Below, in pieces: positions 3,923 to 30,068 of a stretch of 32,000 bases of DNA. Source of the DNA: Trichodesmium erythraeum IMS101 (GTDB taxonomy: Bacteria; Cyanobacteriota; Cyanobacteriia; Cyanobacteriales; Microcoleaceae). The DNA lies in the NCBI RefSeq assembly GCF_000014265.1, contig NC_008312.1, positions 2,580,001 to 2,612,000 of the forward strand, written 5' to 3'. Every line of letters begins with the position of its first letter. Positions within the stretch are counted from its first letter, which is position 1. The translations under genes and the position numbers were made by a program. The notes below the pieces were generated by a model. That model saw only the letters and a list, made by a program, of their open reading frames with translations. It was not told the DNA's origin and made no database searches.

Positions 3923-4081
3923 TTAGCTACTTGGTTGTAGCCATGCTTGGACAATTGCTTTCCCAACTTTGAGATACTTGTTTTCCAGAAAAAATTCGTC
4001 AATTGCAGTTCCACCTCCCGCCCTTAAAGCAGCAATGGTTCGTTGCTTGGTGACTTGGATAAACTGTAACATCAACATAAG
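3923..4081 (-). other. Out-of-frame continuation of the 3999..6464 ORF that encodes a conserved-looking C-terminal module
   Basis: A second minus-strand frame is open from 4081 to the TAA at 3923-3925. It reads ...QFIQVTKQRTIAALRAGGGTAIDEFFLENKYLKVGKAIVQAWLQPSS-stop. This is the expected continuation of the LAEAAEEIQKLLRQLEKTNP module seen just upstream in the main frame. In that frame the ORF instead ends in an odd Cys/Trp-rich tail. Confidence 0.55.
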
Positions 4082-6464
4082 CTACTTGTTCAAGCTCAGT
4101 TGCAGAAGGGTTAGTTTTCTCAAGCTGCCTTAGAAGTTTTTGGATCTCCTCAGCAGCCTCTGCAAGAATTTGGCGATCAGAGGTATTAATATTGATAATA
4201 CCTTCATTTTTTCCAGTTGCTCCAATAACTTGACTGTTAAAGTTCATTTCAACTTCAACATTTTTGGATTCTGTCATGGTACTTACCTCTAAATTAATTG
4301 GGCGATTTGCATACTGACGATGAGTAGTAAGTTCTCTACTAGGAAGTAAACCAACAATAGTAAGAATTATATTAATAATCTCTTCCCTAGAGCCTACTAC
4401 AGCATCTAAATCTAACTTTGCTATTGAGTTTGATAGAATTCTCAACTCTTGATCATTTAATCCGCATAGTATTTCTTCAAAATTTTCTGGATAATTTGAA
4501 TCAGAAAATATTGGAGGAACAGAATTTGGTCGTGAGCTATTCTGAGGGCTTTCCTTGATTTTCAAGATCTCACTTACAAGCCGTGCTTTAGGGGTCACTG
4601 TGTAAGACTTCTGTTGGACATTTTGTAACAATTTGACCCCATTTTCAGAATTGGGTATGGTTTTTGCTAATTTTTGTTCTAATTCTCTAGCTCTTGTGTT
4701 TGATGTATTTAGATGATTTTCTCGTAATTTTAATTCAAAAATTTGTGGCAGCGGTTGGTCAATATTCACTTGTTGAATTCTGGGATTTTTCTTGTATGGA
4801 TAAAAAAACTTGTTAGTAGTCTCTCTATACTCATTCAATAGCTTTAGAAAGTTTTCAATATCTTTTGGTTCAACTAAACGCAAAGATTTTTCCAGACTAG
4901 AGCTAGAGTTAGCCAAATTGATTAGTTCATTTTCAATTTCATTGCGTAGATTATACATATTGTCAAGGCAGGTTGAGTATGTGTCTATTTCTTCAGTAGA
5001 TACATCCAATGGTTGTTTTCTTAGCTTGATTAGTTCAGCTAATGCCTCATCTCTATATTGCAATACTATTCTTTCAGTTTCTGATACTAATTTTTCTTTT
5101 TTCTTTTTTTGCTCAACCGTCATATTTTCTCTGATCATTTGGCTAATAGGATGCTCATATCCAATTGAGGCCATAACTGTATCAAAACTAATACTATCTC
5201 GGCTCTTAAAGGGAAAAAGAATAGAGATTTTTAGATTAGTTCCATCTATCCATTTAGGAACTTGAGTATGTAACTGTGTAAAAAATTCAGTTAATTGCAA
5301 AGAGTATTCAGAGAAATCTATATCAGATTCATCACATAATAGTTTAGCTTTCTCTAAAAATATTTCTTGCCTATCTGAAAATGGTAGTTCAAAAATAGAT
5401 GCAATAAAATTATTATAATTATTATATTTATATTTGAGAATTTCATGAGACTGAGTATGCAATTCAGATTGTTTTTTATGGGCTTTCTTAAACTTATTAA
5501 ATGATGGAATACATTTCTTGGTATTTCCCCACCACTGAAATAATTGATTTTCTAATGAGATGAATTTTGAGTTGCTTTTTTGCTTTATACGTTTTGCTGC
5601 TTTTTCTAAGATTTTTGATGCTTTTGAAGTAAGAAGTTGGCTTGCTGCAAGAAGACATTCATCATAAATATTGGTGGAGATGGAAATTGTCTTGAGTTTG
5701 TTAATAGCAACCTTAAGGTTTTCTTGTTCAAGTTGATGCTTTTCTCGTTTTTTGGATATACTTTCCAAGCGAACGCGACAATCAGACACAATCCTGTTGC
5801 ATCTCCAAGAAGAAGTACTAAGATTATCAATCAAAGATTTATAGTCTGTTGTCTGCTGTCCTAATTTGCGAAGCTTTTCAATAATTTGGGCGACCAATAT
5901 CAGTTCATCCCATAATCTCTCGCTTTTATTAATCCAATCCTTAATGTCTGTGAGTGATCGATCAATGGAACTTATAAAGGAAATAATATCTTGCTCAACT
6001 TGATTCCATTTGTTCAGTGATACCTGGTTTTCTTGATAGAAGTCGTCAATCCAATATCTCATTTGATAGAAAGCCTCATCGGCTGATAAATTTCCCACAG
6101 GAAAAACATCAATCGTTAATTCACCTATATCAGTGAAAAAAACAAAACATGGTACATGACGACCAATTCCTAAGCGTGCAGCAAAACGCATGGATTCACC
6201 AATTCCAGGCATTGCAGTATTATTTTTTACATTAAAAGATAACTCACGAGTTCTTTCAGGCGCGTCTATGGGAAACATTAAATCGGGGGTTAGATCGCGC
6301 CAACGGTCATCATACATTCGTCGAAAGCGATTCCGCCTTGTCCTCCACTCACGACTTCTCATCTCCTCAATAAGTTGGTATATGCCTGCTTCGAGCTGTG
6401 TATCAGGATTATCTTTATGTTGGCAAACTAAACGATAAAGGGCGTCTGCGATCTGTAGGGCCAA
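3999..6464 (-). CDS. Large alpha-helical/coiled-coil protein of unknown function (central part of a probably frame-disrupted ~1000-codon gene)
   Basis: 821-aa ORF whose apparent start is a TTG. I recognised no catalytic motifs. There are long K/E/Q/N-rich helical stretches. The C-terminal NFNSQVIGATGKNEGIININTSDRQILAEAAEEIQKLLRQLEKT module resembles one common in cyanobacterial proteins. Confidence 0.6.
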   Translation of the reverse strand: MALQIADALYRLVCQHKDNPDTQLEAGIYQLIEEMRSREWRTRRNRFRRMYDDRWRDLTPDLMFPIDAPERTRELSFNVKNNTAMPGIGESMRFAARLGIGRHVPCFVFFTDIGELTIDVFPVGNLSADEAFYQMRYWIDDFYQENQVSLNKWNQVEQDIISFISSIDRSLTDIKDWINKSERLWDELILVAQIIEKLRKLGQQTTDYKSLIDNLSTSSWRCNRIVSDCRVRLESISKKREKHQLEQENLKVAINKLKTISISTNIYDECLLAASQLLTSKASKILEKAAKRIKQKSNSKFISLENQLFQWWGNTKKCIPSFNKFKKAHKKQSELHTQSHEILKYKYNNYNNFIASIFELPFSDRQEIFLEKAKLLCDESDIDFSEYSLQLTEFFTQLHTQVPKWIDGTNLKISILFPFKSRDSISFDTVMASIGYEHPISQMIRENMTVEQKKKKEKLVSETERIVLQYRDEALAELIKLRKQPLDVSTEEIDTYSTCLDNMYNLRNEIENELINLANSSSSLEKSLRLVEPKDIENFLKLLNEYRETTNKFFYPYKKNPRIQQVNIDQPLPQIFELKLRENHLNTSNTRARELEQKLAKTIPNSENGVKLLQNVQQKSYTVTPKARLVSEILKIKESPQNSSRPNSVPPIFSDSNYPENFEEILCGLNDQELRILSNSIAKLDLDAVVGSREEIINIILTIVGLLPSRELTTHRQYANRPINLEVSTMTESKNVEVEMNFNSQVIGATGKNEGIININTSDRQILAEAAEEIQKLLRQLEKTNPSATELEQVAYVDVTVYPSHQATNHCCFKGGRWNCN

Positions 6465-6891
6465 ACCTCTGAGAAATTCTTGACAAAAAGAAATCTACTT
6501 CGTTGTAGTTTCGCCAGTGTAGTGCTTCCCAAAAATCATTCAGTATTTCTCCTATACTATATCTGTCTGATCTAGAGAATCTCTCAATTACTTGGTTAAG
6601 AAGGCCATTGTTACGTAGTCTTTTAGCCGAAAAGGAATTAGAGTTCATCCTAGACGCAATATCCTCGAAATATGCTTCAGGAAGCTCTGAGAAGAAAATT
6701 ATGCGTATGCGATCAGCAGTGCGGTGACAGAGATCTATAAAGTAATGGCTAATCAAGTCCTGGCATACAGGTGAGTCATCATTCACAAAAATAATACTTA
6801 AACAAAATCCATCAGTAAGCGATCGGCTATAATTGTCTAACCGAAATAGGTAACGATATATATCTTCTGCTGAAGGTGCTCTATATCCCAT
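6415..6891 (-). CDS. Hypothetical protein, probably the N-terminal fragment of the downstream 3999..6464 gene
   Basis: 158-aa ORF that overlaps the next ORF by 50 nt in a different frame. The downstream frame opens only 12 codons before its TTG start, which fits either a frameshift or an overlapping gene pair. Confidence 0.5.
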   Translation of the reverse strand: MGYRAPSAEDIYRYLFRLDNYSRSLTDGFCLSIIFVNDDSPVCQDLISHYFIDLCHRTADRIRIIFFSELPEAYFEDIASRMNSNSFSAKRLRNNGLLNQVIERFSRSDRYSIGEILNDFWEALHWRNYNEVDFFLSRISQRFGPTDRRRPLSFSLPT

Positions 6892-9968: not shown

Positions 9969-12758
9969 TTAAATAACCACAAAATTAACCAACTTTCTCG
10001 GAACTACAATCACTTTCTTAATTTCCTTACCAGCCAAATGACGCTGTGCTATGTCTGACTCCCGTGCCAACTTTTCCAAAGTTTCCTTATCTGCTTGCGC
10101 TGGCACCTGAATAGTTCCCCTAGTCTTACCCTTAATCTGAATTACTAAAGTAATTTCATCTACCACCAAAGCTTCCGGGTCAAATTTTGGCCAAGCATGA
10201 GTATGTACTGAACCAAAATTACCAGCAATTTGCCATAATTCCTCAGTTATATGTGGTGCAAACGGTGCCAACAACAATAGCAAAGTTTCCAAAGCTTCAG
10301 CATAAATAGGAGAATCTTTGCAACTAGCGTCACCGAGAGCATTACTCAATTTCATCATCTCAGAAACAGCAGTATTAAATTGATAATCTCCATCTAAATC
10401 TTCCGTTACTTCCTTGATAGCATTATGCACCGCACGTCGCACATCTTTCTCTGCTTTAGTTAACTCCCCACCAAACCTACTTTTGATCCAAGTCAAAACT
10501 TTCTGCAAATCATCCTTAGTCTCTTGTTGAGTTTCAGAATAATTGAACTTAGCTTCTATTGCTACCAACACATCCTCAACAGGATAAACTTTCACCACAT
10601 TTCTAAGTTTAAACGCAGAAATATTTTTAGTGATTTCAGTGATCAAATACCGAGACCAACCCAAATCTTTCAAGTCGGCTTGAGTAATACCATGGTGTTT
10701 TGCCTTCAACTCACTAAAACTATGATTTGCCAAAAATTCCATCACCATTGACCACACTCTGTTCAGGAAACGAAACTGCCCTTGTACATCAGCATCATCC
10801 CACTCTAAATCTTTTTCCGGTGGTGCTTTAAACAAAATAAACATCCGCGCCGTATCCGCACCATATGTTGCCATCACATCCATTGGATCCACACCATTAT
10901 ATTTAGATTTAGACATCTTCTCAAAGAAGACTTCCAATTTATCCCCAGTTTTTGGGTCTTTTGGTTCTTGCGGGTTAACATCGGCAAATGGAATATATTT
11001 ACCAGTCACCGGGTTTTTGTAAGTAACACCTTGCACCATTCCTTGAGTCAACAAATTTTGGAAAGGTTCGTCAAAATCACACAAACCCCGATCGCGCAAA
11101 ACCTTAGTAAAAAATCGCGAATACAACAAATGTAAAATCGCGTGTTCAATACCTCCCACATATTGATCTACAGGCAACCAGTCATTAACAATTTTCGAGT
11201 CAAACACCTGTTCTTCATTTGTCGCATCTGGATAACGCAAGTAATACCAGGACGAATCAATAAAAGTATCCATAGTATCAGTTTCTCGTTTTGCTGGAGT
11301 ACCACAACTAGGGCAAGAAACATTTACCCAATCTTCCAATTTTGCCAAGGGTGACGGACCACGACCAGAAAATTCAACACTTTCGGGCAACTTTACAGGC
11401 AAATCTTCATCTGGCACAGGTACAGCACCACATTTTGGACAGTGAATAATAGGTATTGGTGCGCCCCAGTAACGTTGTCTAGAAATCAACCAATCTCGCA
11501 AACGATATTGTACGCGACCTTTGCCATAACCTTCATCTTCAGCAAGTTCAATAATTGCTTTTTTAGCAACAGTAGATTTTTCTCCATTAAACGGACCGGA
11601 ATTAACCATAACCCCAACATCAGTATAAGCTTCTGTTAGTTTATGATCATCATTGGAGTCATCAGGCACAATTACAGTTTTAATGGGTAAATTATATTGT
11701 TTGGCAAACTGGAAGTCGCGGACATCATGAGCAGGTACTCCCATAACAGCCCCTGTACCATATTCATAGAGTACATAGTCAGCGATCCAGATGGGAACTT
11801 CCTGATTATTGAATGGGTTGATAGCTTTACCTCCAGTAGGAACACCACGCTTGGGTTTATCTTCGGCGGTACGTTCTAATTCACTTTCAGCAGCTACTTC
11901 TTTAATGAAAGTTTCCACAGTAATTTGTTGTTCTGGGGTTGTGACTTTTGCTGTCAAAGGGTGTTCGGGAGCTAAAACAACATAACTAACCCCATAGACA
12001 GTATCGGGTCTAGTCGTGAAGACTCCGATTTTTTGATCCATCCCCACTATGGGAAATTCCAGATAAGCTCCAACAGATTTTCCGATCCAGTTTGCCTGCA
12101 TGAGTTTAACTCGTTCCGGCCAACCAGGCAATTTATCCAAATCATTGAGGAGTTGTTCAGCATAATCAGTAATTTTGAAGAACCATTGACGTAACATTTT
12201 ACGTTCGACTTTGGCTCCAGAACGCCAGGAACGGCCTTCTCCATCTACTTGTTCATTGGCCAGTACAGTTTGGTCGATAGGGTCCCAGTTAACTGCAGAT
12301 TCTTTTTGATAGGCCAGACCAGCTTGGAAAAATTGCAGGAATATCCATTGAGTCCAACGGTAGTATTCGGGGGTGCAAGTAGCGACTTCTTTATCCCAGT
12401 CGATGGAAAAACCCAAACGTCTTAGTTGTTCTTTCATTTGGGCAATATTTTCCAGAGTCCATTTGGCGGGTGGGATACCCCGGTCAATAGCTGCGTTTTC
12501 TGCGGGGAGTCCAAAAGCGTCCCAACCCATGGGGTGCAGGACACGATAACCTTGCATCCGTTTGAGTCGGGCAATGACGTCGGTAATAGTATAGTTACGA
12601 ACATGACCCATGTGTAAGTTCCCGGATGGGTAGGGGAACATGGATAGAGCATAGAATTTAGGCTGGTTATTGTTTATAGGAGTTTGATCTTGGTTTTGTT
12701 CAGCCCAGTTTTTTTGCCACTTTTGTTCAATGGATACAGGGTTATATTTGGAGTCCAC
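9969..12758 (-). CDS. leuS: Leucine--tRNA ligase (929 aa, with an extra ~70-residue segment in the C-terminal half)
   Basis: HIGH-type motif HMGH at residues 49-52. KMSKS at residues 614-618. A CP1 editing-domain block (TTRPDTVYG) and the zinc-type cysteines CPKCG and CPSCG are present. The ORF is collinear with bacterial LeuRS throughout. Confidence 0.97.
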
Positions 12759-13405: not shown

Positions 13406-14197
13406 CTATTTTTTGTCAGCAGGAGGACTGAAACGAATTTCTATACGCCTTCTCTGAGGATCTGGATAGCGCTGTACTCCCGCATATTCTCCTGAAGGTA
13501 GATAAAGTTGTGCTGCTGAATAAGCTCGGAATTTTAATTCTAGTTGCTTTAAACGAGGGTTTTTTTCAAGTTCTTTTACTACTGCTAAAGCTCGCATTAA
13601 ACCTAAATCTGCATTAGAACTTGGGGTGAGATTACTAATATTTATATTGTTATTAACACGAGCAACTTCTTCTAAAAGATTATCTAAATTACTTACTTGA
13701 AAACGATTATTTTTTTGGCCATCAGTATGACCAATTACTTGTACGATATAACCTTCTTTCCCTTGAGCATAATTTTCGATTTGCTTCACTAAATTGTTCT
13801 CAATAAAATTAACTAACCCATCAGACAATTCGGCACTACCTGATGGAAATTTACGATTAGATACTTCTGTAATTTCAATTGGTGGTTGGGATGTTAAGCT
13901 AGAAATTTCTTCATTTTTTCTCTTGATAGTCTTTTCTTGTTGCTTTATCTTTTCAGATTTTTCCTGTATTTCTTTGTCTTTTTCTTTGACTTTATCCTGC
14001 AATTTTTTATTCTCTATTTTTACTAATTTAAGTTCAGTATTGACTCTGGAAATATCTGAATTTACAACTCCTGATTTAAGTAATGCTAGGAACAAAAATA
14101 AGCTCAAAATCATAAAAGCGCTCGACATCACATCTGTAAAAGATTGCCAGACATTGAGAGCTTGATTTAACCTTGAATATCGTAAACGGCGACTCAT
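13406..14197 (-). CDS. MotB/ZorB-like protein: N-terminal TM helix with conserved Asp, ~60-aa coiled coil, C-terminal OmpA-like peptidoglycan-binding domain
   Basis: 263 aa. WQSFTDVMSSAFMILSLFLFLALL resembles the MotB YADFMTAMMAFFLV segment, with Asp22 at nt 14132-14134. OmpA_C blocks are FPSGSAEL, VIGHTDG, NADLGLMRALAV and RRRIEIRF. Confidence 0.8.
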   Translation of the reverse strand: MSRRLRYSRLNQALNVWQSFTDVMSSAFMILSLFLFLALLKSGVVNSDISRVNTELKLVKIENKKLQDKVKEKDKEIQEKSEKIKQQEKTIKRKNEEISSLTSQPPIEITEVSNRKFPSGSAELSDGLVNFIENNLVKQIENYAQGKEGYIVQVIGHTDGQKNNRFQVSNLDNLLEEVARVNNNINISNLTPSSNADLGLMRALAVVKELEKNPRLKQLELKFRAYSAAQLYLPSGEYAGVQRYPDPQRRRIEIRFSPPADKK

Positions 14198-14469
14198 AAT
14201 TTTTACTTCTTTATTGATCTGAAAAAATCAAAAAGTTTTGGTAATTAAATAGTGGTTTAAAACCTATGGGTATTTACCAAAATTATAACCATATTATAGT
14301 TTCATAGAGTGAGCAAATCTTTACCCACTCTAAACTTAGTATTAGATTGACTCTGATATTTAATAGTATTAAGTAATGAGGACTTATTAACTTCCAGAAT
14401 TCTTCCATAGGAGCATTTCAGTGGGATACTAAAGCGCCAATATTTGTGGTTCATATTTTATCCCAATTT

Positions 14470-16161
14470 CTAAATAGACTTTCTCCTGGAATTTGCTTCT
14501 AATTGAGAGTCTTTAAATTCAGTAGTATTACTTGAAGATTGGAATTGCAATTGTAAGTTTGATTCTAACTTTTCAAACTTGTTTTTTATCTGACTCAGAT
14601 AATCTACAGATTCTTCAATTTTTCCTCTAAGTGTCCTAATTTCTTGACTATTGTTACCTACCTGTTCAACTAAAGTATTAGTCAAGCGATCGCCTAAATT
14701 ATCTAAACTTGTAATAGATACCTGAAATTTTTCCAATACCTTCTGAATTTCCTGGTTATTAATATCTACTTTTTGGGCTACGTTATCAATTAGCTTGTTA
14801 CCAAAATTTTGAATTTCTGTATTGACTTCTTGGGAATTTGCTTTCAATGTTTTTACAATATTAGCTAGCTCTGATTGTATATTTACCAGACTTTCTTCTC
14901 TAACCTTAATCTCATTCTGTAGGCTTTGAATTATTTGGGAAGCCGACTTAAAATTATTTGCTCCTTCGTTAAGTTTAGGAATAATATTTTGAAGAGATTT
15001 TTGATTGATTTTATGTAATTCAAATACCTCACGATAGTTTTGATTAAAGTTGATAATTTCTGCTGTTAAACTTCCTAGAGTCTGACTGTTTTTATTCGAT
15101 GATTCTTTAATATCGTTTACTGTTTCTTGTAAAGCAGAAGTTGAGCTAGAAAAATTTTGTTGCATGGTAGCTAAATTTTGAGTAGCTTCTGATAATTTTT
15201 TAGGAAATTGACTTTGTTGAAATGTTTTAGATGCCTCCTTAAATTCTTTTACTGTAGGTTTCATCTCATCAGCAATAATATTTTGAAAGTTATTAACAAC
15301 TGATTCAAATCTACCTGCTGCATTAGATATTGTCCCAGAAGATTCAGTAAATCTTGTATAAACTTGTTTAGCGATATCAGCCGCTTCTTTGTTACCTTCG
15401 GAAATTTCTCTTGCTATTTTTCCCAAGGATGATTCCACTGCATTTGTTACATTTTGATGAAATCTATTTAAGAAGTAATTTTGCTGTTCTACCATGCGGT
15501 TAACAGCCTTATCAAGTCTAGTATTACCTTCTATTTTTGGTTGTAAAATATTATCGAGGTAATCTTCTAAATAGCTGATTAAATCTTCTCTTGCCAAATT
15601 AGTATTCCATTTAAGGTTAATTACTGTTAATAAGGAACTACAAGCTACAGCAATTAAGCTAGTAATAAAAGCAATTCCCATACCTTGGATAGGGTCTTGT
15701 AATTGCTCGACTAAGTTATTTATATCAGTTGCTTTAACTTGATTAATTGTTTGAATTAAGCTTGATAAGTTAATGACTATTCCAAGAAAAGTGCCTAATA
15801 TTCCAAAGGATATTAATAGGTTAGGTAATGCTTGAGAAAAGTAATCCCATTGATGGCATCGTAATGGAAATCCTAAAAAATCAAATTTTTCTTGGCTATA
15901 AATTCCATCTACTAATGCTGCTGTATTAACTTCTTCTAAATTTTTACTTGCTATGGAAAATCTTGCCTCTAAATATTCAATTATTTTAGGTTTTCGTCCT
16001 GGACTTATCTCGCGAATTAGTCTTCTAACTTTATCATTTAAATATATTAAATAATTGTAGAGTCGGATACGCACTATGGCAGTAAATATAGTGGGAAAGA
16101 TTACCAATACTATACTCAAGATAAGCAATGGAAATGGAATTAGCTGGAATAATTCAACCAT
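14470..16161 (-). CDS. MotA/ExbB/TolQ-family channel protein with a long C-terminal helical tail (ZorA-like architecture)
   Basis: 563 aa. Predicted TM helices lie at about residues 5-30, 110-132 and 160-182. Family-typical blocks are LPNLLISFGILGTFLGIV and GMGIAFITSLIAVACSSLLTV (core at nt 15607-15849). Residues ~186-563 are uninterrupted Q/N/S/E-rich helix or coiled coil. An AAGGAG Shine-Dalgarno (16170-16175) sits 8 nt upstream of the ATG. Confidence 0.75.
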   Translation of the reverse strand: MVELFQLIPFPLLILSIVLVIFPTIFTAIVRIRLYNYLIYLNDKVRRLIREISPGRKPKIIEYLEARFSIASKNLEEVNTAALVDGIYSQEKFDFLGFPLRCHQWDYFSQALPNLLISFGILGTFLGIVINLSSLIQTINQVKATDINNLVEQLQDPIQGMGIAFITSLIAVACSSLLTVINLKWNTNLAREDLISYLEDYLDNILQPKIEGNTRLDKAVNRMVEQQNYFLNRFHQNVTNAVESSLGKIAREISEGNKEAADIAKQVYTRFTESSGTISNAAGRFESVVNNFQNIIADEMKPTVKEFKEASKTFQQSQFPKKLSEATQNLATMQQNFSSSTSALQETVNDIKESSNKNSQTLGSLTAEIINFNQNYREVFELHKINQKSLQNIIPKLNEGANNFKSASQIIQSLQNEIKVREESLVNIQSELANIVKTLKANSQEVNTEIQNFGNKLIDNVAQKVDINNQEIQKVLEKFQVSITSLDNLGDRLTNTLVEQVGNNSQEIRTLRGKIEESVDYLSQIKNKFEKLESNLQLQFQSSSNTTEFKDSQLEANSRRKSI

Positions 16162-16182
16162 AATTAAAACTCCTTTAGATTA
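16148..16182. repeat. 35-bp direct repeat, copy A (covers the start codon and SD of the MotA-like gene)
   Basis: aataattcaaccataattaaaactcctttagatta matches 16466-16500 with 3 mismatches in 35. Confidence 0.85.
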
Positions 16183-16465
16183 AATCCATAAATCTTTTTT
16201 TTATTTGCCACTAAAAATTATAATTTTGTGGTAAATCACATCAAATATAGCATTTCTTAGTTTAGTGAAGTACAGTTATATTTTATCTTTTTTCTTAGTA
16301 TTTGCCTGTTGATTGTTTTCTGTTGACTAAAATCAATAATTTTTACCTCACAAGTATAATAATTTTTAGATGTCCCAGAATAGAAACAAATAAACTTTGT
16401 TTTCCTATGTTTTTTGAGTAGATTCTGCAATAACTTTTCGACTCTTTTTTTTTGTAATTATTTAA

Positions 16466-16500
16466 AATAATTCAACCATAATTAAAGCTCCTTTATCTTA
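16466..16500. repeat. 35-bp direct repeat, copy B (abuts the stop codon of the tubulin-like gene)
   Basis: aataattcaaccataattaaagctcctttatctta. On the minus strand it supplies AAGGAG, an 8-nt spacer, then ATG GTT GAA TTA TTT TAA. That is a mini-ORF, MVELF-stop, at 16479..16462. Confidence 0.85.
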
Positions 16501-16501
16501 C

Positions 16502-19500
16502 TTAAATACCTAATATATTTTTCTTAGCTGCCTGAAATTCTGCATCTGTCAAAAATCCCTGTTCTTTCATCCTTACTAAATCCTTCAATTGTTTCATCCG
16601 GTCATCTCCTGAATTATGTTGCTTATCGCGATAATTTGGAGAATTATCTAAATCAATATCAACGTCAATAATTTCATCCTTTATTACCTCCTTATTTTCC
16701 TCTGTTACAGTAGATTTTGACTGAAGTAATTGTATATTTTTTACTTTTTTTTGTATACGACGGCGAAAGCGATTAATAATTCCTTCCTTTCCAGAATTTT
16801 CAGTTGTTGGTGGTGTTCCAACTACCGTATCTTTATAAGGATAATTAAGATCATCTTCCGGTAAATTATCAATTTGTTTAACAAACTTTTGCAACTTCGG
16901 TAAATAATAGTTTTCCCAGAGCAGAGGTTCTTTATCTATTTTTTCTACTTCTTTATCCAGAATATTTTTCAAAGCCTCTGTCATATCCTGCCGATTAGCT
17001 AATTCCTCTAAAGCTTGATTCCAAACTGAACTAAGCTCCGCAGTGTAATAACTATCTCGCATATCATTGTAATACATAAATTCTAATAACTCATCCCCAT
17101 TTTTTTGAATTAATTCTAAAGCCAAACAAGGATAAAAAATATCTTCTAACTCTTCTATTTTTGCTGCATCTGGAGGAATAATATCAGCAAAGAAAATCCG
17201 ATTGTTATTATGGAGAAAAGAAGTAGAATAATTCATTTCTCGAATGTAAGAATTTCTCATTTGCTCAAGATTAGTAATTAGTCTCAAAGGAAAAGCTGCA
17301 TATTCTTTAACGATTAAAATTTGGTCTTCCGCTTGAGTTGGTTTAAGAGTATTATTGTCAACTCCTAAATCTCCCACCAAAATATCTTTAAATTGTTTAA
17401 CTCCTTCATCATCAGTATCTTTAAATCCTATTAATTGACTGTGTTTAGAATCCCTATCTCTGAAGTAAATAGCATTAAAATCTAAAGGTAAAAGTGGTTC
17501 AGCCTCCTGCATAATTTGTCCCAAACGAGTGCTCCTTTCAACCCTAGAATAGTTCTGTAGAAAACGCTTAATTACAGAATTAACAATATTAGTACTCCGA
17601 ACTCCAAATAACCTATCTACTGTGAGATTAACTTCTTCTTTTACTTGCTCTTCTTCCCTGACTTTTTCTCTGATAAAAATTGCAATTGATTGCCCGTCTT
17701 CAGACGATTTAGTAATTTCCGAACTTAGTTGTACCAATTGTGACTTTAGCTCTTCGAGAGGGAGTAAAATTTGAGAACAGTTATTGATATCTTCCTCCGC
17801 AAAAATAGCTTCTCCACTCATTTCATCAAAGTCTAGTTGTTTTAAATTTGCTTGTTCTTTTTCATAGTCATTTTTAAGGTTATTAAGTAAGTTTGTAAAT
17901 TCTCTTAGTTGGGCAGCAATATTTTCAACATGATTTTGTAAATTTCTTACTATTTCAAGAGTTTCTTGGAAAACTATTAAGTCAAAATTATGTCTAATTA
18001 AATCGCAAATTTGTCTGACTATTCTTTTAGCTTCAGCTTGAAATTCTCTATTCTTACCTCCCAATAAAGGCAGTTCAAATTTATTCTCAATATCTGCAAT
18101 TATCTGTTCGCCATCTTGCCATTTTCTGTCTACATCCTCTAATATCTTACTACCATTAAAATCTACAATTTTTTCTTCAATATCCCTTTGATAATTATTC
18201 AGTTCATTTTTCATTGCTTCTAGCCATTCCCGACTACTTCTAATAGAAAAATTATCATTACTCGGACTTAGCAAATCCACAATAAAACTATTAATATTTT
18301 GTTGAAATTCCACTGTAATTTTCGGACAAATTTGTTGCAACCTTGTCAACCAAACCCCTCTACTACTATCAGTTGTTCCGGGAATAACCTTTCTAAATTG
18401 CTCTCGAAAATCTCTCGGTAATCGTTGCTGTAATGCTATCCGGTCATCCTTATTTTGAGACTCAGAAATTGCCCTATCTAATTTATTTCTCCAAGCATTA
18501 ATTGTACTTTGAAAATTCTTATTAGACTCTTCCACAGATTCGGCTAATCTTCTACTTAATCCATCTCGTTTTTGCAAGTCATCATGCCAGCGATATTGAA
18601 GTAAAAATCTTTCCAGTAATAAAACCGAATCTGGGCTTTGACCTTCACCATTTAACCAGAAATTAACTAAATTTAAACTAATACGATTTAAAGCTATTTG
18701 AACAATTTTATCCCGTGGAAAATAAATAGCCGCCATACCAAAAGTTAAGTAGCGTTGAATATTAGGACGAGGGTGATTATCATATTGGATTAAATCTTGT
18801 AAAAAATTATCTCTCATACCTTTAACTATAGGCGCTAATTCTCCAGAAAAATCCAAAGCAATTTTATGAGCAATAACATTACATAATTTACGTTGCTCAA
18901 GAATTTTATATCCTCCTGTTGTCTCATTAGAAACCAAATAAGCATAATCATAAGGAGGTCGTTCTGATTGAACAATTACTAAGTCTTGTATATCGTAACA
19001 AGCTTCAAATTTTGTACCAGGAGTAGTGTAATGATTTAGTTCTTTTAAGGCTGCATAAGTATTAGCTTTCATATTAGTATTATTTCCATATAACTCAGGA
19101 CTAATTACTAAATAACCAACAATTTTAGTGTTTTGCTGACCATAAGAATGTCTCAAACTATAAGCAACATCTAAAAACATTCCACTGCCAGTACCTCCAC
19201 AAAGAGAACCCACAATAAAAATATTTACTCCCCCATCTACCCTTAACCCCATTTTTAGTAAAATACCCTCATTTCCTCTAGTTTTTTTTTCCGCTATTTC
19301 AATTGCTTTTTGAATCTTACGATAGTTATGAAAAAAAGCTAATCTTCCTACTGGTCTAATTCCTTTTGCACCCTCTTCTATTGCCTTAATATTCCGATTA
19401 AGTTGAGGAGGAAACCATTGACGAATATGGTCGTAAGGTCCTGTTCTTTCAGAAGTGGAATGTTTTTCTAATTCTTGAGTAAAATTATCCACATCTCTGC

Positions 19501-19774
19501 TACTCATTGTGGCACTAACTTTCTCAGCTTCCTTAAAACTAAGGTCAACTCCATGATATGTACTGCCAGTTCTTAAACCAGATATTTGACTAGCTGACTT
19601 GTCAGTATCAATATGAACAAAACTCACAATTGGCAGTTTTTCTAAATCCCCATAACTATCTACAATTAATCTACGAATTCGCATCAAAATATCTCTACCA
19701 GTACCTCCTATTCCGATACAAATAGTACGATTAATTCCTCTAGACTGGCGTTCTTGACTAGTTGATTGAATCAT
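16502..19774 (-). CDS. Giant tubulin/FtsZ-superfamily GTPase-like protein (Tubulin_2-like N-terminal domain, ~700-aa helical extension, SHOCT-like C-terminus)
   Basis: 1090 aa. T1-like loop CIGIGGTGRDI at residues 19-29 (GIGGTG at nt 19697-19714). A GAKGIRPVGR block resembles FtsZ GAGANPEVGR. The tubulin signature GGTGSG is at residues 193-198 (nt 19181-19198, checked on the DNA). The C-terminal MKQLKDLVRMKEQGFLTDAEFQAAKKNILGI resembles a SHOCT domain. A strong AAGGAGG SD (19783-19789) lies 8 nt from the ATG. Confidence 0.75.
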   Translation of the reverse strand: MIQSTSQERQSRGINRTICIGIGGTGRDILMRIRRLIVDSYGDLEKLPIVSFVHIDTDKSASQISGLRTGSTYHGVDLSFKEAEKVSATMSSRDVDNFTQELEKHSTSERTGPYDHIRQWFPPQLNRNIKAIEEGAKGIRPVGRLAFFHNYRKIQKAIEIAEKKTRGNEGILLKMGLRVDGGVNIFIVGSLCGGTGSGMFLDVAYSLRHSYGQQNTKIVGYLVISPELYGNNTNMKANTYAALKELNHYTTPGTKFEACYDIQDLVIVQSERPPYDYAYLVSNETTGGYKILEQRKLCNVIAHKIALDFSGELAPIVKGMRDNFLQDLIQYDNHPRPNIQRYLTFGMAAIYFPRDKIVQIALNRISLNLVNFWLNGEGQSPDSVLLLERFLLQYRWHDDLQKRDGLSRRLAESVEESNKNFQSTINAWRNKLDRAISESQNKDDRIALQQRLPRDFREQFRKVIPGTTDSSRGVWLTRLQQICPKITVEFQQNINSFIVDLLSPSNDNFSIRSSREWLEAMKNELNNYQRDIEEKIVDFNGSKILEDVDRKWQDGEQIIADIENKFELPLLGGKNREFQAEAKRIVRQICDLIRHNFDLIVFQETLEIVRNLQNHVENIAAQLREFTNLLNNLKNDYEKEQANLKQLDFDEMSGEAIFAEEDINNCSQILLPLEELKSQLVQLSSEITKSSEDGQSIAIFIREKVREEEQVKEEVNLTVDRLFGVRSTNIVNSVIKRFLQNYSRVERSTRLGQIMQEAEPLLPLDFNAIYFRDRDSKHSQLIGFKDTDDEGVKQFKDILVGDLGVDNNTLKPTQAEDQILIVKEYAAFPLRLITNLEQMRNSYIREMNYSTSFLHNNNRIFFADIIPPDAAKIEELEDIFYPCLALELIQKNGDELLEFMYYNDMRDSYYTAELSSVWNQALEELANRQDMTEALKNILDKEVEKIDKEPLLWENYYLPKLQKFVKQIDNLPEDDLNYPYKDTVVGTPPTTENSGKEGIINRFRRRIQKKVKNIQLLQSKSTVTEENKEVIKDEIIDVDIDLDNSPNYRDKQHNSGDDRMKQLKDLVRMKEQGFLTDAEFQAAKKNILGI

Positions 19775-20089
19775 GGTTTTTACCTCCTTTAATATTGACC
19801 ACTAAATGCTTACTAGCAATTTGAATAAAACCACATAGTTCTACATTTTCATTTCTACCACATTCTATTACAATATTTACAGCACTTGAAGCACAATAAC
19901 GACGACTTTAATTAGTCAACCCATACAATTATGGGATAGAAAATGTAGATTTTGCTCGATAAACTTCTAAAGTTCAATGATGGGTTTTTACCCATACTTT
20001 TAATTCTTTAAAACCTCTCAATTGCTTTTTATTCCTTTAAAAACAATAAAGCTAATAGCTAATAGCTGAACCCTGAATACTTACCTTTA

Positions 20090-21229
20090 CTATTTTTTAA
20101 TTTTGATAATTATCTCATAATCGCGATTTCTTCCATCAGGACAATTAAGCCTAACTTGAGAACTAGATATTAAAGTACGACTCAAAACTTTTTTCCCATT
20201 AAGATAAATTTCTGCATTCCCAGTTGGTTCTAGAGAAAGTCGATTTCCTTTCCTGATTAAAAAACCTCGAATTTCTGGTCCGGGGGTATCTATTGAATCA
20301 ACACAAAATTCATCATATTCACCAATAGCAATTTTTTTATTATTCGGCAAACGACAAATTTGGTATTCCTCGATTTTACTGCTACTAAAATCAACAATTA
20401 ACTCCCATTTTTTTTGCAGACTTATCCATTTTTTTACTCCCACTATAAACCCTATAAAAACCAACAAAAAAATTAACCCAGGTAGCCATAATAACTTCCC
20501 TAAATAAGAATTAACCAAACAAGTTTCCCTGCCTCCCGGTGCTGGGGTACAAAATTCTTGAACAGTAGGAGCAATATCCACAACCGCTAGTTGATATTCT
20601 TCACCATTTTCTGTTCTAATTAACAGCTTTCTCTCGTCTAAAGGTAAAGCATTTATCCAAGATATTCGCCGTTGACTTTCCTCAGAATTTTCTACTCTAA
20701 AAGGGCTATCTTTAGGAGTTTCTATCCACACATTTGAATCAATTCCTGCTGCAGTTAAAAGTGGTGCATCAGTAATCCAAATTACCGACTGAGGTTTAAT
20801 CGATTGATTTTTTTCTAAGCGACATTGATTAATCTGAGCTAGGTTTTGATAAAGAAATAATTCTGCTCCTTGAATATCCGTATTTTGTAGAGTTAAATTT
20901 GGCTTAAATGGCACTAACTCCAAAATTTTACTGATGTCTTGTTTGCCATTAAATTTAACTGCCCCTTCAACTGTCAAGGGATTAATTCTTGGTGCGAGAG
21001 GATTAATATTTGTGGCAAAAGGTACAACATAGACTTTATCTCCAGGCCGCAAACTATCTTTAACGATCTGACGCAAACGGATACGACCTTCATCATTTAA
21101 GCCTACACTTTCTGTTAAGTCAATTGCTAATACTACATCTCGTCCACCATAAATATTGGCAACTAATTCTAGCCCTGTTTTTTGCCAATATTGGATATTT
21201 TGTCCTGTACTAACTATGGAACAATTCAC
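20090..21229 (-). CDS. vWA domain - single TM - FHA-like domain protein
   Basis: 379 aa. MIDAS-like VVLAIDLTES at residues 33-41 (DLTES at nt 21107-21121). Hydrophobic helix LLWLPGLIFLLVFIGFIVGV at about residues 246-265. The C-terminal KIAIGEYDEFCV...IRGFLIRKGNRLSLEPTGNAEIYLNGKKV resembles a degenerate FHA fold. The apparent start is GTG with no obvious SD, so the 5' end is uncertain. Confidence 0.65.
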   Translation of the reverse strand: MNCSIVSTGQNIQYWQKTGLELVANIYGGRDVVLAIDLTESVGLNDEGRIRLRQIVKDSLRPGDKVYVVPFATNINPLAPRINPLTVEGAVKFNGKQDISKILELVPFKPNLTLQNTDIQGAELFLYQNLAQINQCRLEKNQSIKPQSVIWITDAPLLTAAGIDSNVWIETPKDSPFRVENSEESQRRISWINALPLDERKLLIRTENGEEYQLAVVDIAPTVQEFCTPAPGGRETCLVNSYLGKLLWLPGLIFLLVFIGFIVGVKKWISLQKKWELIVDFSSSKIEEYQICRLPNNKKIAIGEYDEFCVDSIDTPGPEIRGFLIRKGNRLSLEPTGNAEIYLNGKKVLSRTLISSSQVRLNCPDGRNRDYEIIIKIKK

Positions 21230-21420: not shown

Positions 21421-21979
21421 AATTACCTCTAATTAAAACCGTATTGATCCTCACAGAAAGTAACATCAAGTGTTCAATAAATGTTATTTTCGATACTCCA
21501 ATGAGTTTGAATAGCATGGCGAAGGAATTGGATATTACCAGGTAGAGAGGTCATTTTAGTTATTAGTTATCAATGCTTATCCCTGAAATTGGAGACTTGA
21601 AATACCGAATATTTTTTTGAATTGACCACTTTATTTACCTATAGTAGTAGTTAAACATAACGGTTTTATAAATCGTAATTTCGTTTCTTGATAACTAACT
21701 TTTGTGAGTCAAACGAAAAATAAATCTATAGGTTCTATTTTTGTAGCATTTAGGTACATATCAATTTTGAATAAAGCCAAAAAATTATCACTTTTAAGGA
21801 AAACTTAACCGGAAACAAGGAATAGAAAAAAAGTATTTTTGCCAATAAAATATGAAATGCATTCTAACATCTAAATTATCCAGTATCTAAAACGGCAAAT
21901 AATTTTGCTTATGCTTTACATAAAATCAGCATAAAATTTGTATGAGCAAACTATAAAAAATTATGAAAAATTTGGGAAT

Positions 21980-23347
21980 ATGAAATCTATAATTAAAAAT
22001 AGCTTTATTCGATTAACTTTAGTCAACATTTTATCTAATTTAATGGTACCTTTAGCAAGTCTAATAGACTTAGCTTTTTTAGGTTATTTAGATGAAATTC
22101 GTCATTTAGCAGGAGTTTCCATTGCCACAGTTTTATTTAACTATATTTACTGGACTTTTGGATTTTTACGCATGAGTACAACTGGTACAACTGCTCAAGC
22201 TAATGGCAGTAGAAATTACCACGAAGTAAAACAAATTTGTCTACGTAATTGCTTAATTGCTTTAACCATTGCCACAATAATTATAATTTTCCAATATCCT
22301 TTACGAGAAATTGGCTTTAATTTACTTAGTGCAACTCCAGAAGTAAAAGCTAGTGGTATTAACTACTATAAAAGTTTAATTTGGGGTGCCCCTGCTACCT
22401 TATTAAACTTCGTATTAATAGGTTGGTTTTTAGGACTCGAACAAGGAGGAAAAGTTTTACTATTATCAATAGTTAATAAAGGAACAAATATTATCCTAGA
22501 CTATATTTTTATTGTTCGTTGGGGATGGGAAAGTAGCGGAGCTGGTAGTGCTACAGCAATAAGTCAATATATAACTTTAGTTATCGGTATGATTTGTGTT
22601 TTTAAATTCATATATTTAGCAGAAATTCCTCAGTTAATCAAAAATATTTGGCAACCTCAAGTAATTAAAAAAACTTTTATTCTCAATCGAGATATTCTGA
22701 TTCGTACTTTTGCTATAATTTCTACTTTTGCTGTATTTACTAATTTAAGCTCATACATAAATACTCTAGTTTTAGTAACTAATACTCTGTTATTACAGGT
22801 AGTTACATTAGCCGCTTATTTTATTGACGGTCTAGCTTTTGCCACAGAAAGCTTAGCAGGAAAAAGTTATGGTAAAAGAAATCAAAAAGAATTAAAAGCA
22901 TTGGTAAAATTATCAGGGATAATTGGTATAAGTATCGGATTAATTTTTGCCTTTATTTTCTGTTTATTCCCGACTACTTTATTTAGTTTGTTGACTAATC
23001 ATACTCAGGTTATTAACAATATTAGTAGTTATGTTTTATGGTTAATACCTATCTTGGGTTTTGGAGGCATAGCTTATATTTTAGATGGTTATTTTCTAGG
23101 TTTAACTCAAGGAAATTTGTTGCGCAATTCTACTTTAGTTGCTAGTTTAATAGGATTTTTACCCTTTGCTATAGTCGGTTTATTGTTAAAAAATAATCAT
23201 ATATTATGGTTATCTTTGGCAATGTTTATGGCAACTAGAGCTATTACTCTAGGTAAGGCTATTCCTAATATAATTGTTGAAAAATTTTCGGCTTCAATAG
23301 AACTCATCAAAGACAAGAATAATAAAAAACATATTACTCCTAAATAA
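21980..23347 (+). CDS. MATE family efflux transporter (DinF-like)
   Basis: About 12 hydrophobic segments. The N-terminal LVNILSNLMVPLASLIDLAFLGYL...LAGVSIA block is typical of MATE/DinF proteins. The track ORF begins at a TTG at 21938, and the first ATG (21980) is the more likely start. Confidence 0.85.
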   Translation: MKSIIKNSFIRLTLVNILSNLMVPLASLIDLAFLGYLDEIRHLAGVSIATVLFNYIYWTFGFLRMSTTGTTAQANGSRNYHEVKQICLRNCLIALTIATIIIIFQYPLREIGFNLLSATPEVKASGINYYKSLIWGAPATLLNFVLIGWFLGLEQGGKVLLLSIVNKGTNIILDYIFIVRWGWESSGAGSATAISQYITLVIGMICVFKFIYLAEIPQLIKNIWQPQVIKKTFILNRDILIRTFAIISTFAVFTNLSSYINTLVLVTNTLLLQVVTLAAYFIDGLAFATESLAGKSYGKRNQKELKALVKLSGIIGISIGLIFAFIFCLFPTTLFSLLTNHTQVINNISSYVLWLIPILGFGGIAYILDGYFLGLTQGNLLRNSTLVASLIGFLPFAIVGLLLKNNHILWLSLAMFMATRAITLGKAIPNIIVEKFSASIELIKDKNNKKHITPK

Positions 23348-25961: not shown

Positions 25962-26045
25962 ACTGCCATTACAATTTAAAATCTACTTATTTGCACTTAT
26001 ATGACATCCCTATAAATTTACAACAATATTGTAGTCATATCCTAG

Positions 26046-26073
26046 GTTGGGTTAAGCGATAGCGCAACCCAAC
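26046..26073. repeat. Stem-loop gttgggtt-aagcgatagcgc-aacccaac (cyanobacterial AACCCAAC-type hairpin element)
   Basis: Perfect 8-bp stem plus an inner gcg/cgc pair, read directly. It resembles a short hairpin repeat common in filamentous cyanobacteria, from recollection. Confidence 0.5.
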
Positions 26074-26717
26074 AAATATAACCACTTAAACAAAATTGCT
26101 TACTTAGTCTAATTTTATGTCAGATATACAATATAAAAAAATGAGCTCCACAAAATGTGTGATTAATTTTTATCTACCTTCTTAACAAAATCAACAAAAA
26201 AAACACTGAAACACTACCCTATTTTTGTTAAAGCTCTTTTAGTTCACAACACCTAACTGAACTTTAAACCAATATACAAATACTAAACTTTTTTATTAAT
26301 TTGATGATGTATTAAAATCAGCAGATAAAAGTCAGCGTAGAAATTTTAATTCATCTTTTAAAATCCCAATAAATCAGCGATCGCATATAATAAATTTTCA
26401 CACTAATTCATTAATTTTACTATCTTAGATAACCCTAAAAACAAGCATCTAAAAAATCTCATTACTCCCTTTCCTCTTGATTCGTTTGCCTCATAATTTT
26501 TCCTGCTTATGTCAGGATTATTAATTACTTAAAATCTTCTTTTTTTATCTTATAAAATCTGTCAATAATCTCATGATAAAACTGTAAAAAAAATCAGTCC
26601 CAAAAATAAAAAAACTCATCTCATACGAACAATTTACCCAATACTTTGAATTATTATCTAGGCAAAAACGTTGAAATTTTATTAACAATATCCAAAATAT
26701 ATTTATCAGTTTACATT

Positions 26718-26768
26718 CTTAAATAGCAACAGTAATTAAACTCAATTCTTAAAGAAAAAAACGACCTG
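26718..26768. repeat. ~51-nt direct repeat, copy 1, in the hemE upstream spacer
   Basis: cttaaatagcaacagtaattaaactcaattcttaaagaaaaaaacgacctg aligns to 26907-26957 at roughly 80% identity with one 1-nt indel. Confidence 0.6.
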
Positions 26769-26906
26769 TAGAGCAAAAACTTAGTAACTTCCAAAAGAAA
26801 ATAACCAATCAAAATTTTGGCAACTCATTGGAGCTTACCCATAATTTACAGCAAGCACAGTCGTTTCTCTAATCTTCTATTCCCACAGAGCCCCACTCCC
26901 TACCCC

Positions 26907-26957
26907 CTTAAATAGCAATAATAATTAAACTTTTTTCTTAAAGACAAAAAAACCTAC
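26907..26957. repeat. ~51-nt direct repeat, copy 2, in the hemE upstream spacer
   Basis: cttaaatagcaataataattaaacttttttcttaaagacaaaaaaacctacc. Confidence 0.6.
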
Positions 26958-27209
26958 CTACCCAACTCCACCTAACAGGAAGAGTTAGGCCTTAGCCCCC
27001 TGCTCAAAGTGCTAACTAGAAAAGCTTTTGAGACACAGTAGCCATATTATTATTTCTTACTCCCTTAATAACTTTAAGTAAACTTTCGTTACGATCTCAA
27101 CCTAAATATTTCCACAAGCGTCATGTCCCTGTAAACTTACAATTCAGGACAATTAAATTGACCTAACCAGTTAAAATCAAAGATTTTAGAAGCAAAAGGT
27201 AAAGCAAAT

Positions 27210-29543: not shown

Positions 29544-30068
29544 TTAATTGTTTTTATCGTTTAAAAATATTTGATAGTTTTCCTGAACTTTTTGAGTGTG
29601 AGGATGTTCTTCGCCTAATGATTGTTTAAATATTTCAATTGCTTGTAGCAACAACGGTTCTGCCGCTTCGTATTTTCCTTGCTCACGATATAATTCTGCC
29701 AGGTTGTTGAGACTAGCGGCAATATTTGGATGATTTTCAGGGAGGGCAATTTTGTAGATTTCAATAGCTTGTAGCAACAACGGTTCTGCTGCTTCATATT
29801 TTCCTTGTGCGCGATATAATTCTGCCAGGTTGCTCAGACTAACAGCAATATTTGGATGATTTTCAGGGAGGGCAATTTTGTAGATTTCAACTGCTTGTAG
29901 CAACAACGGTTCTGCTGCTTCATATTTTCCTTGCTCACGATATAATTCTGCCAGGTTGTTGAGACTAACAGCAATATTTGGATGATTTTCAGGGAGGGCA
30001 ATTTTGTAGATTTCAATAGCTTGTAGCAACAACGGTTCTGCTGCTTCATATTTTCCTTGTGAATAATA
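29544..30068 (-). CDS. TPR-repeat protein, C-terminal fragment of an IS-split gene (kinesin-light-chain-type TPR_10/12 repeats)
   Basis: Repeated 42-aa units ALPENHPNIAVSLNNLAELYREQGKYEAAEPLLLQAIEIYKI. The reading frame is open from the IS junction (30068) to the stop at 29544. Confidence 0.8.
   Translation of the reverse strand, partial: YYSQGKYEAAEPLLLQAIEIYKIALPENHPNIAVSLNNLAELYREQGKYEAAEPLLLQAVEIYKIALPENHPNIAVSLSNLAELYRAQGKYEAAEPLLLQAIEIYKIALPENHPNIAASLNNLAELYREQGKYEAAEPLLLQAIEIFKQSLGEEHPHTQKVQENYQIFLNDKNN

Follow-up and report, generated by a model that had tools for sequence, protein, structure and literature searches.

What would a cyanobacterium do with a gene cluster that sets a pair of stator-like membrane proteins beside a giant relative of tubulin? 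The question is raised by a 32,000-nucleotide stretch of the Trichodesmium erythraeum IMS101 chromosome (2,580,001-2,612,000), here called the window and numbered from its own first letter, in which four genes lie together on the minus strand. Gene 1 (Tery_1709; 20090-21229; 379 amino acids, GTG start) encodes a bitopic protein with a vWA domain, a transmembrane (TM) helix, and an FHA domain; gene 2 (Tery_1707; 16502-19774; 1090 amino acids) encodes a tubulin-superfamily GTPase of the FtsZl1 family; gene 3 (Tery_1706; 14470-16161; 563 amino acids) encodes a ZorA-like protein of the MotA family with a long tail; and gene 4 (Tery_1705; 13406-14197; 263 amino acids) encodes a MotB/ZorB-like subunit. 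Their products are identical to ABG50973, ABG50972, ABG50971, and ABG50970, respectively. We document the gene content, domain identities, key-residue conservation, and gene order of this cluster and find that Tery_1709-1705 is the cyanobacterial form of an FtsZl1-centered module first listed in 2010. The function that we favor, to which we give about even credence, is that an envelope-coupled 5:2 motor signals to FtsZl1 as part of a conserved envelope surveillance or damage response, and that the module is not a mobile anti-phage cassette.

The cluster itself has thus been in the literature since 2010, and the novelty lies in the reading of the motor. The FtsZl1 family was introduced by Makarova and Koonin (2010, Biol Direct 5:33; PMC2875224), who placed it in a proposed 'membrane-remodelling' system alongside vWA proteins, GTPases, and 'OmpA family' proteins. 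Additional file 5 of that paper lists Tery_1709 (2600090..2601229, vWA), Tery_1707 (FtsZl1), Tery_1706 ('B7'), and Tery_1705 (COG1360/OmpA), with coordinates and lengths that match the window genes at an offset of 2,580,000, and gene 2 appears in this founding paper of the family as GI 113475384. An initial annotation of the window had called the cluster a candidate undescribed system, a claim that cannot stand given that the exact locus is in this table. The same vWA/FtsZl1/B7/COG1360 layout is recorded there for Anabaena, Cyanothece, and Microcystis, and FtsZl1 with 'MotA/TolQ/ExbB' and OmpA is listed for Deinococcus. B7 is glossed as 'membrane-associated protein' in Additional file 6, and the main text takes the OmpA proteins as β-barrel porin-like and never mentions MotA; the proposal predates both Zorya and the concept of 5:2 motors. 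Three points appear to be new relative to 2010: B7 as a stator subunit that resembles ZorA and has a long tail; the OmpA protein as its MotB/ZorB partner and not a β-barrel porin; and the FHA domain on the vWA protein. Our full-text literature search returned nothing relevant that links ZorA, ZorB, or Zorya with tubulin, FtsZ, or FtsZl1, and a 2025 survey of MotAB homologs leaves ZorAB out of its phylogeny and mentions neither cyanobacteria nor tubulin nor FtsZ.

Is gene 3 the moving part of a motor? Its motor domain (residues 1-190; 15592-16161, minus strand) comprises TM1, a short cytoplasmic domain, TM2, and TM3, and hydropathy places the three TM segments at residues 12-30, ≈115-135, and 163-181, which is the topology of ZorA described by Hu et al. 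(bioRxiv 10.1101/2023.12.18.572097). The PADLOC models for ZorA1, ZorA2, and ZorA3 match gene 3 at E values of ≈6e-15, and its best sequence matches in the PDB are four Escherichia coli ZorA entries, including 8qyy and 8qyd (E value of 1.6e-5 for 8qyy). Pro113 and Thr124 of gene 3 align to Pro136 and Thr147 of E. coli ZorA (EcZorA), two residues that have been functionally tested (bioRxiv 10.1101/2023.12.18.572097), and both are invariant in 111 homologs, where they fall within the TM2 motif LPxLLxxFGxLGTFxG. Gene 3 gave no direct match to Pfam MotA_ExbB (PF01618) at E≤1. A HMMER search with its residues 1-235 against 1.84 billion representative sequences returned 448 proteins at E≤1e-3, a small family; remote relatives among them (E values of 1e-11 to 1e-14) pass the PF01618 gathering threshold (24.8-29.1 versus 22.9 bits) and also match ZorA models. 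By this chain of relatives, gene 3 can be assigned to the MotA_ExbB superfamily, and its annotation as a MotA-type protein with a long tail holds.

The tail takes up ≈370 residues (191-563; 14470-15591, minus strand) and is predicted to be helical and bundle-forming. Its hydrophobic residues recur with a period of 3.58-3.64 residues, at a power of 15 against 7.3 for the 95th percentile of shuffled sequences, which differs from the period of 3.5 in canonical heptad coiled coils. The same analysis yields 3.70 for residues 231-386 of EcZorA, whose sequence was transcribed from alignment output. These values fit, and do not prove, a near-straight or right-handed bundle like that of the ZorA tail. 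The tail contains four prolines, and the 'unbroken' helix of the initial annotation may be regarded as a prediction. Across the family, protein length ranges from 493 to 932 amino acids, and the proximal part of the tail is conserved, including a LEDYLDN motif. We also looked through the gene 3 family for a conserved docking site at the tip, as tail-tip recruitment in the style of Zorya would imply, found none, and set that model aside.

For gene 4, profile evidence is weak and residue-level evidence is strong. Hydropathy indicates one TM segment, which contains Asp22 (FTDVM; codon 14132-14134, minus strand), and this aspartate is present in 71 of 71 relatives. A putative OmpA-type peptidoglycan-binding domain occupies residues ≈106-256, with the motifs GHTD, SNADLGLMRA, and RRRIEIRF conserved throughout the family. 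These features support the annotation of gene 4 as a MotB-type protein with a TM aspartate and an OmpA domain, and the combination of a single Asp-bearing TM segment with a peptidoglycan-binding domain is that of ZorB. Scores against models are low: 15.8 bits against Pfam OmpA (PF00691; cut-off 27.2), probably owing to an insertion of ≈30 residues; an E value of 2.6e-9, under the cut-off, against the NCBIfam MotB family; an E value of 0.003 against the PomB peptidoglycan-binding domain in the PDB; and an E value of 5e-5 against PADLOC ZorB1, the likeness to ZorB models being weak. Between the TM segment and the OmpA-type domain lies a Lys/Glu-rich linker of ≈60 residues (46-105; 13883-14062, minus strand) that is probably helical and is missing from about half of the homologs. 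It could set the reach of the protein to the peptidoglycan layer.

Taken together, the sequence comparisons support a stator pair that resembles ZorAB more than any other pair in the MotAB family, as the initial annotation had proposed. In the ZorA5B2 complex of E. coli type I Zorya (PDB 8QYD/8QYY; Hu et al. 2025), a MotA-like subunit with three TM segments and a very long helical tail pairs with a subunit that has one TM Asp and a domain for binding peptidoglycan, and gene 3 (with a predicted tail) and gene 4 are built alike. The TM2 Thr and Pro are kept, the best HMM and PDB matches are to ZorA, and the tails of both EcZorA and gene 3 show a non-heptad periodicity. The Trichodesmium module differs from Zorya in that it lacks ZorC, ZorD, ZorE, ZorF, and ZorG and has a tubulin-family GTPase and a vWA-FHA protein as partners instead; the membrane-proximal cytoplasmic domain of gene 3 is also shorter. 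Gene 3 likewise shares its superfamily with the large subunits of MotAB/PomAB and ExbBD/TolQR, and gene 4 has a MotB/PomB-like peptidoglycan-binding domain. Unlike those systems, gene 3 has three and not four TM segments, a long tail replaces the torque-generating interface, and the module comes without flagellar or TonB-dependent partners. ExbD and TolR are not known to carry OmpA domains. A role in gliding or flagellar motility was considered and rejected, as the module occurs in Microcystis and the flanks examined contain no linked motility genes.

What, then, would such a motor act on? The membership of gene 2 in the tubulin superfamily is secure on sequence grounds: the GTPase domain (residues 18-370; 18665-19723, minus strand) matches Pfam Tubulin_2 (PF13809) with an E value of 5e-111 and 371.8 bits against a cut-off of 27, over profile positions 1-355 of 356, so the tubulin signature noted in the initial annotation is genuine. 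Across 25 homologs, neither the T1 loop (G21, G23-G26) nor the signature G193GTGSG198 varies, and gene 2 thus has the T1 and T4 (GGTGSG) nucleotide-binding motifs in common with FtsZ, tubulin, TubZ, and CetZ. It differs from them in carrying ≈700 additional residues. The GTPase domain is followed by a long helical middle, an α/β C-terminal region, and a SHOCT-like end, which scored under threshold; no TM segment was found by hydropathy. The AlphaFold2 (AF2) model places helices across residues 355-760 and mixed α/β structure at 778-1020, the arrangement of the FtsZl1 family. This model is of moderate quality (predicted local distance difference test (pLDDT) score of 67) and is confident for residues 360-650 and 870-1010. 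Homologs are 55-65% identical over the full length, and their length is held at ≈1025-1117 amino acids. No solved structure could be detected by sequence, and Foldseek, run on this low-confidence model, matched the N-terminal ≈250 residues to tubulin/CetZ with probability 1.0 but weak E values (≥9e-3); every Foldseek E value for gene 2 exceeded 1e-3. Foldseek matches of the helical region to ClyA-type pore toxins (probability 0.5-0.94) reflect generic helical bundles and were not used.

A second conserved element of gene 2 lies outside the GTPase domain. The loop DEMSGEAIF (D650-F658; 17801-17827, minus strand), located between long helices, is invariant in 25 sequences and sits in a linker of low pLDDT at residues 647-657. 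As a candidate for docking or modification, the loop might be recognized by, for instance, the metal ion-dependent adhesion site (MIDAS) or the FHA domain of gene 1.

Gene 1 had no match in the Pfam, PADLOC, or NCBIfam HMM libraries, and a profile search of its alignment against the PDB found nothing; because profile searches were uninformative, its fold was taken from AF2 and Foldseek. The AF2 model, built from 30 sequences, has a pLDDT of 85.5 and supports the vWA-TM-FHA architecture that had been annotated. The vWA-like domain (residues ≈28-225; 20555-21148, minus strand) has a Rossmann-like fold and matches ITIH1 (6fpy; E value of 6e-4, probability 0.98) and α2δ-1, and a MIDAS-like set, D37xT39xS41, T117/D118, and D154, is invariant in the 30-sequence alignment. 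Homologs, Ava_1847 among them, are annotated as 'VWA domain-containing' and are 55-65% identical across cyanobacterial orders. The C-terminal FHA-fold domain (residues ≈275-378; 20096-20407, minus strand) forms the β-sandwich typical of FHA and matches afadin, KIF1A, Rv0020c, and Rad53 with E values of 3e-5 to 1e-3, probability 1.0, and target-normalized TM-scores of 0.56-0.70; ≈20 FHA structures are among the top Foldseek matches. Reading the alignment by eye, we could not make out the canonical G-R and SxxH residues with which FHA domains bind phosphothreonine, the G-R position being G303-E. Cys292 and Cys363 in the FHA domain are conserved. A 2026 preprint on Esx/Esr, which describes threat sensing with vWA and FHA domains, was checked and offers a loose analogy only.

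Between the two domains, hydropathy, the alignment, and DSSP assignment of the model agree on a single TM helix (residues ≈245-264; 20438-20497, minus strand). It is preceded by a β-hairpin with invariant Cys227 and Cys237 on adjacent strands (20519-20551, minus strand) and followed by KK..KK. By the positive-inside rule, these lysines suggest that the FHA domain is cytoplasmic, and the cysteine hairpin would suit a periplasmic vWA domain. The topology bears on a different function, in which the vWA-TM-FHA protein would be a force transducer in the manner of TonB or TolA: its TM helix would dock on the motor, which would energize the vWA domain in the periplasm to act on the peptidoglycan or outer membrane, and FtsZl1 would only position or regulate the assembly. 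A precedent dates from 2025 (PMC12204202), when periplasmic vWA domains were described on TonB/TolA-like transducers that couple to 5:2 motors, and the lysines and the hairpin suggest that the vWA domain of gene 1 is periplasmic. The domain order is nevertheless the reverse of that in TonB/TolA, with the vWA domain N-terminal and no signal peptide; the TM helix of gene 1 has no SHLS-type motif; and the Deinococcus module does without a vWA-TM-FHA protein altogether. We consider such a transducer quite improbable.

Do the four genes belong together at all? The breadth of the module was drawn from the 2010 supplement, contigs encoding homologs, plasmid records, and a single scan of metagenomes. 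A Pelatocladus genome (384/1084/548/220 amino acids) and a Microcystis genome (374/1048/718/213 amino acids) carry all four genes in unchanged order amid unrelated flanks, and a scan of genome contigs with the single gene 2 protein returned one Trichodesmium metagenome-assembled genome only. The metagenome scan, seeded with the gene 3 alignment, yielded 80 loci whose ORFs (open reading frames) were searched with our own HMMs, and 39 of these had enough flank on both sides to count gene order. Gene 1, gene 2, gene 3, and gene 4 follow one another on one strand in 27 of the 39; four further loci have insertions or a missed gene 4, one is degraded, and the remaining seven hold a paralogous stator-only pair. 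The order of genes 3 and 4 could be tested at 66 loci, and 63 of them have gene 4 after gene 3. The four genes are co-conserved, their co-occurrence being far beyond chance. Two Deinococcus megaplasmids carry two genes for hypothetical proteins followed by FtsZl1, a MotA-like gene, and an OmpA gene, and the MotA-like protein is homologous to gene 3 (BLASTP 1e-10) and matches ZorA models; gene order is thus conserved in two phyla. In cyanobacteria, the module is chromosomal, single-copy, and apparently vertically inherited; the vertical inheritance had been noted by Makarova and Koonin (PMC2875224).

The stator-only pairs consist of an uncharacterized, long-tailed MotA-like protein and a MotB-like protein without FtsZl1 or vWA. 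They adjoin housekeeping genes such as a TlyA/FtsJ-type methyltransferase or PhoH (loci L056 7986-10174, L080 7872-10237, L058 7968-10056, and L084 7941-10138, together with L081, L082, and L073).

The Trichodesmium locus itself is loosely packed. The annotated coordinates were confirmed as those of maximal ORFs on the minus strand, and the only other ORFs in the cluster span are one of 123 amino acids antisense within gene 4 and one of 27 amino acids (19912-19995, minus strand) in the gene 1-gene 2 spacer. The 2010 table omits the locus tag Tery_1708, and only this 27-amino acid ORF occupies that gap. The three spacers measure 315, 340, and 272 bp (19775-20089, 16162-16501, and 14198-14469), whereas other cyanobacteria have median gaps of 17, 77, and 52 bp, short enough to fit an operon. 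Immediately after the gene 2 stop codon lies a fossil gene 3 start with its ribosome-binding site (AAAGGAG..ATG GTT GAA TTA TTT TAA; 16453-16500, minus strand). With its twin at 16135-16182 it forms a 48-nucleotide direct repeat, 83% identical and 318 nucleotides apart, and it spans the ribosome-binding site and the first five codons of gene 3. A gene 3 start in this position implies that the 340-bp spacer is a later insertion in the Trichodesmium lineage. No Rfam families, tRNAs, or minus-strand terminators were found within the cluster, and promoter-like sites there are no more frequent than expected by chance. The unusually long spacers are what one would cite for the disfavored notion that the four genes are mere neighbors with no shared function. 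That notion is scarcely credible given that, across cyanobacterial orders, most loci that could be tested keep this order on one strand amid unrelated flanks, that spacers elsewhere are short, and that the fossil start marks the gene 2-gene 3 spacer as secondary.

If the genes form one module, is it a defense system? The main rival to a surveillance function holds that this is a genuine Zorya-type anti-phage or abortive infection system in which FtsZl1 and the vWA-FHA protein are effectors that replace ZorC/D/E: the ZorAB-like pair would sense phage-induced envelope damage and elicit, for example, a toxic or containment polymer or a block to division. The closest characterized homolog of the motor is ZorAB, and the length and distal sequence of the gene 3 tail are highly variable. 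Kaur, Burroughs, Iyer, and Aravind (2020; eLife 9:e52696) described firmicute and actinobacterial clusters of tubulin, vWA, and GAP1-N2/DO-GTPase genes, with the same FtsZl1-type tubulin and a membrane vWA protein, as predicted conflict systems with an NTP (nucleoside triphosphate)-dependent assembly output. Those clusters differ from the present one in having extra GTPases, FNIII, and HSP70 and no MotAB-like stator, and the cyanobacterial four-gene form is not discussed in that paper, where 'MotA' occurs 0 times. Elsewhere, FtsZl1 is found beside two caspase-family and two OmpA-family genes on plasmid p2 of Azospirillum sp. TSA2s (L008 3942-14813) and downstream of an AAA ATPase and DUF2357 pair on a plasmid of Deinococcus sp. 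QL22 (L007 1-4630); these contexts look more like those of conflict systems than the cyanobacterial one does, and the Deinococcus versions are plasmid-borne.

The cyanobacterial neighborhoods point the other way. Among 121 flanking ORFs of 35 complete loci, which cover 231 Pfam families, there is no recurrent defense gene, nuclease, or helicase, nor does any PADLOC family recur apart from a few matches that are generic or isolated; a defense-island context was thus looked for in these flanks and not found. The flanks are housekeeping and lineage-variable; the commonest families are Uma2 (6), sigma-70 (5), Ycf48 (4), and ABC transporters (4). No orthologs of the module were found in plasmid and phage collections. 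At the Trichodesmium locus, no PADLOC model matched gene 1 or gene 2, and the neighbors are a leucyl-tRNA synthetase (LeuRS; 9969-12758, minus strand) and a MatE transporter (21938-23347, plus strand). The locus thus contains none of the effector sets that accompany zorAB in Zorya (ZorC with ZorD, ZorE, or ZorF with ZorG), and the initial annotation was right that ZorC/D/E-type genes are missing. Because the module sits on the chromosome outside defense islands, seems to have been inherited vertically, and shows strong conservation, tight in both sequence and length for genes 1 and 2, we favor envelope surveillance, and we regard a dedicated anti-phage system as unlikely, although it is the alternative to be taken most seriously.

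How might an envelope motor and a cytoplasmic GTPase work together? In the scheme that we favor, whose stoichiometry, physical coupling, trigger, and output we infer, five copies of gene 3 would surround two copies of gene 4 in a ZorAB-type 5:2 ion-driven motor. Asp22 of gene 4 would carry the ion, its OmpA-type domain would grip peptidoglycan, and the helical tail of gene 3 would project ≈50 nm into the cytoplasm. The place of the DNA-targeting effectors of Zorya would be taken by the cytoplasmic FtsZl1 GTPase and the bitopic vWA-TM-FHA protein. A change in the envelope or its peptidoglycan, with phage attack among the possible triggers, might engage the MotB-like subunit and open the ion flow. 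FtsZl1 could then read the rotation or conformational change of the MotA-like ring and of its conserved membrane-proximal tail, with the vWA-FHA protein tethering or gating the GTPase at the membrane. The presumed result is GTP-dependent assembly, through which the inner membrane or envelope would be remodeled or reinforced locally, and no attack on nucleic acid.

Must ions flow at all? Following the 2010 proposal, FtsZl1 could instead form filaments anchored to the envelope by the vWA protein and a peptidoglycan-bound MotAB-like complex as a constitutive membrane-remodeling or cytoskeletal scaffold, with no signaling by ion flow. This prediction is published (PMC2875224) and agrees with the housekeeping-like conservation of the module; the stator-only pairs beside TlyA/FtsJ and PhoH, which do without FtsZl1, also lend it some weight. 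Against it, Asp22 and the Thr/Pro motif of TM2 are strictly invariant, which speaks for a role of ion-driven motion, and FtsZl1 may not form the polymers on which a scaffold would depend. We judge a static scaffold to be improbable.

Several observations weigh against the surveillance motor that we prefer. The only characterized relative of the motor is an anti-phage system, and other clusters that combine FtsZl1 and vWA have been predicted to be conflict systems, as discussed above. Gene 3 scores 43.7, 40.5, and 22.4 bits against the NCBIfam models ZorA_2, ZorA_3, and ZorA_4, well under their curated cut-offs of 100, 250, and 500. Ser184 in TM3 of EcZorA aligns to an invariant Met161 in gene 3, and a conserved Ser168 follows seven residues later, which leaves the conservation of this stretch of the ion path in doubt. 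The distal 120 residues of the gene 3 tail, including the tip, are not conserved either. On the GTPase side, the T7 loop and the C-terminal activation domain of tubulins and FtsZ are not identifiable in FtsZl1 (PMC2875224), the AF2 model of gene 2 is poor at residues 226-354 (pLDDT <50) with the T7 region at low confidence, and FtsZl1 may not polymerize. Gene 1 has no signal peptide that would export its vWA domain to the periplasm, and its topology is ambiguous. Finally, the literature searched does not mention Tery_1705-1709 or, likewise, the locus tags Ava_1848 and MAE_58770.

A bolder version of this scheme, which we offer tentatively and think rather less than likely, is that a ZorAB-type motor directly controls the assembly of a tubulin-superfamily GTPase in an ancient pairing that was passed on vertically in cyanobacteria and is also present in Deinococcota. 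Zorya-like motors may then have served first in housekeeping envelope surveillance, with anti-phage Zorya derived from them. If true, direct motor control of GTPase assembly would for the first time connect a 5:2 membrane motor with an NTPase of cytoskeletal type. Were the coupling real, Zorya-like 5:2 motors would be modular sensors with non-nuclease outputs, and cyanobacteria would own a conserved machine for signaling from the envelope to the cytoplasm. Two questions can be tested together here, namely the role of the widespread FtsZl1 relatives of tubulin and the way in which the tails of ZorA-type motors signal to cytoplasmic partners. Orthologs in genetically tractable Anabaena and Nostoc strains make such experiments feasible.

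Elsewhere in the window, three further features were recorded. An ORF of 821 amino acids (3999-6464) and an overlapping ORF of 158 amino acids (6415-6891), both on the minus strand, have no Pfam match at E≤0.001. An AT-rich region of 1.25 kb (25962-27209) contains no ORF of ≥100 amino acids, has no Rfam match, and shows a C-over-G skew of -0.40. Tandem 126-bp (42-codon) repeats that are 93% identical occupy 29632-30059 and 31096-32000; they lie within minus-strand ORFs at 29544-30032 and 31093-31944, which probably encode repeat proteins, possibly of the tetratricopeptide repeat (TPR) type.

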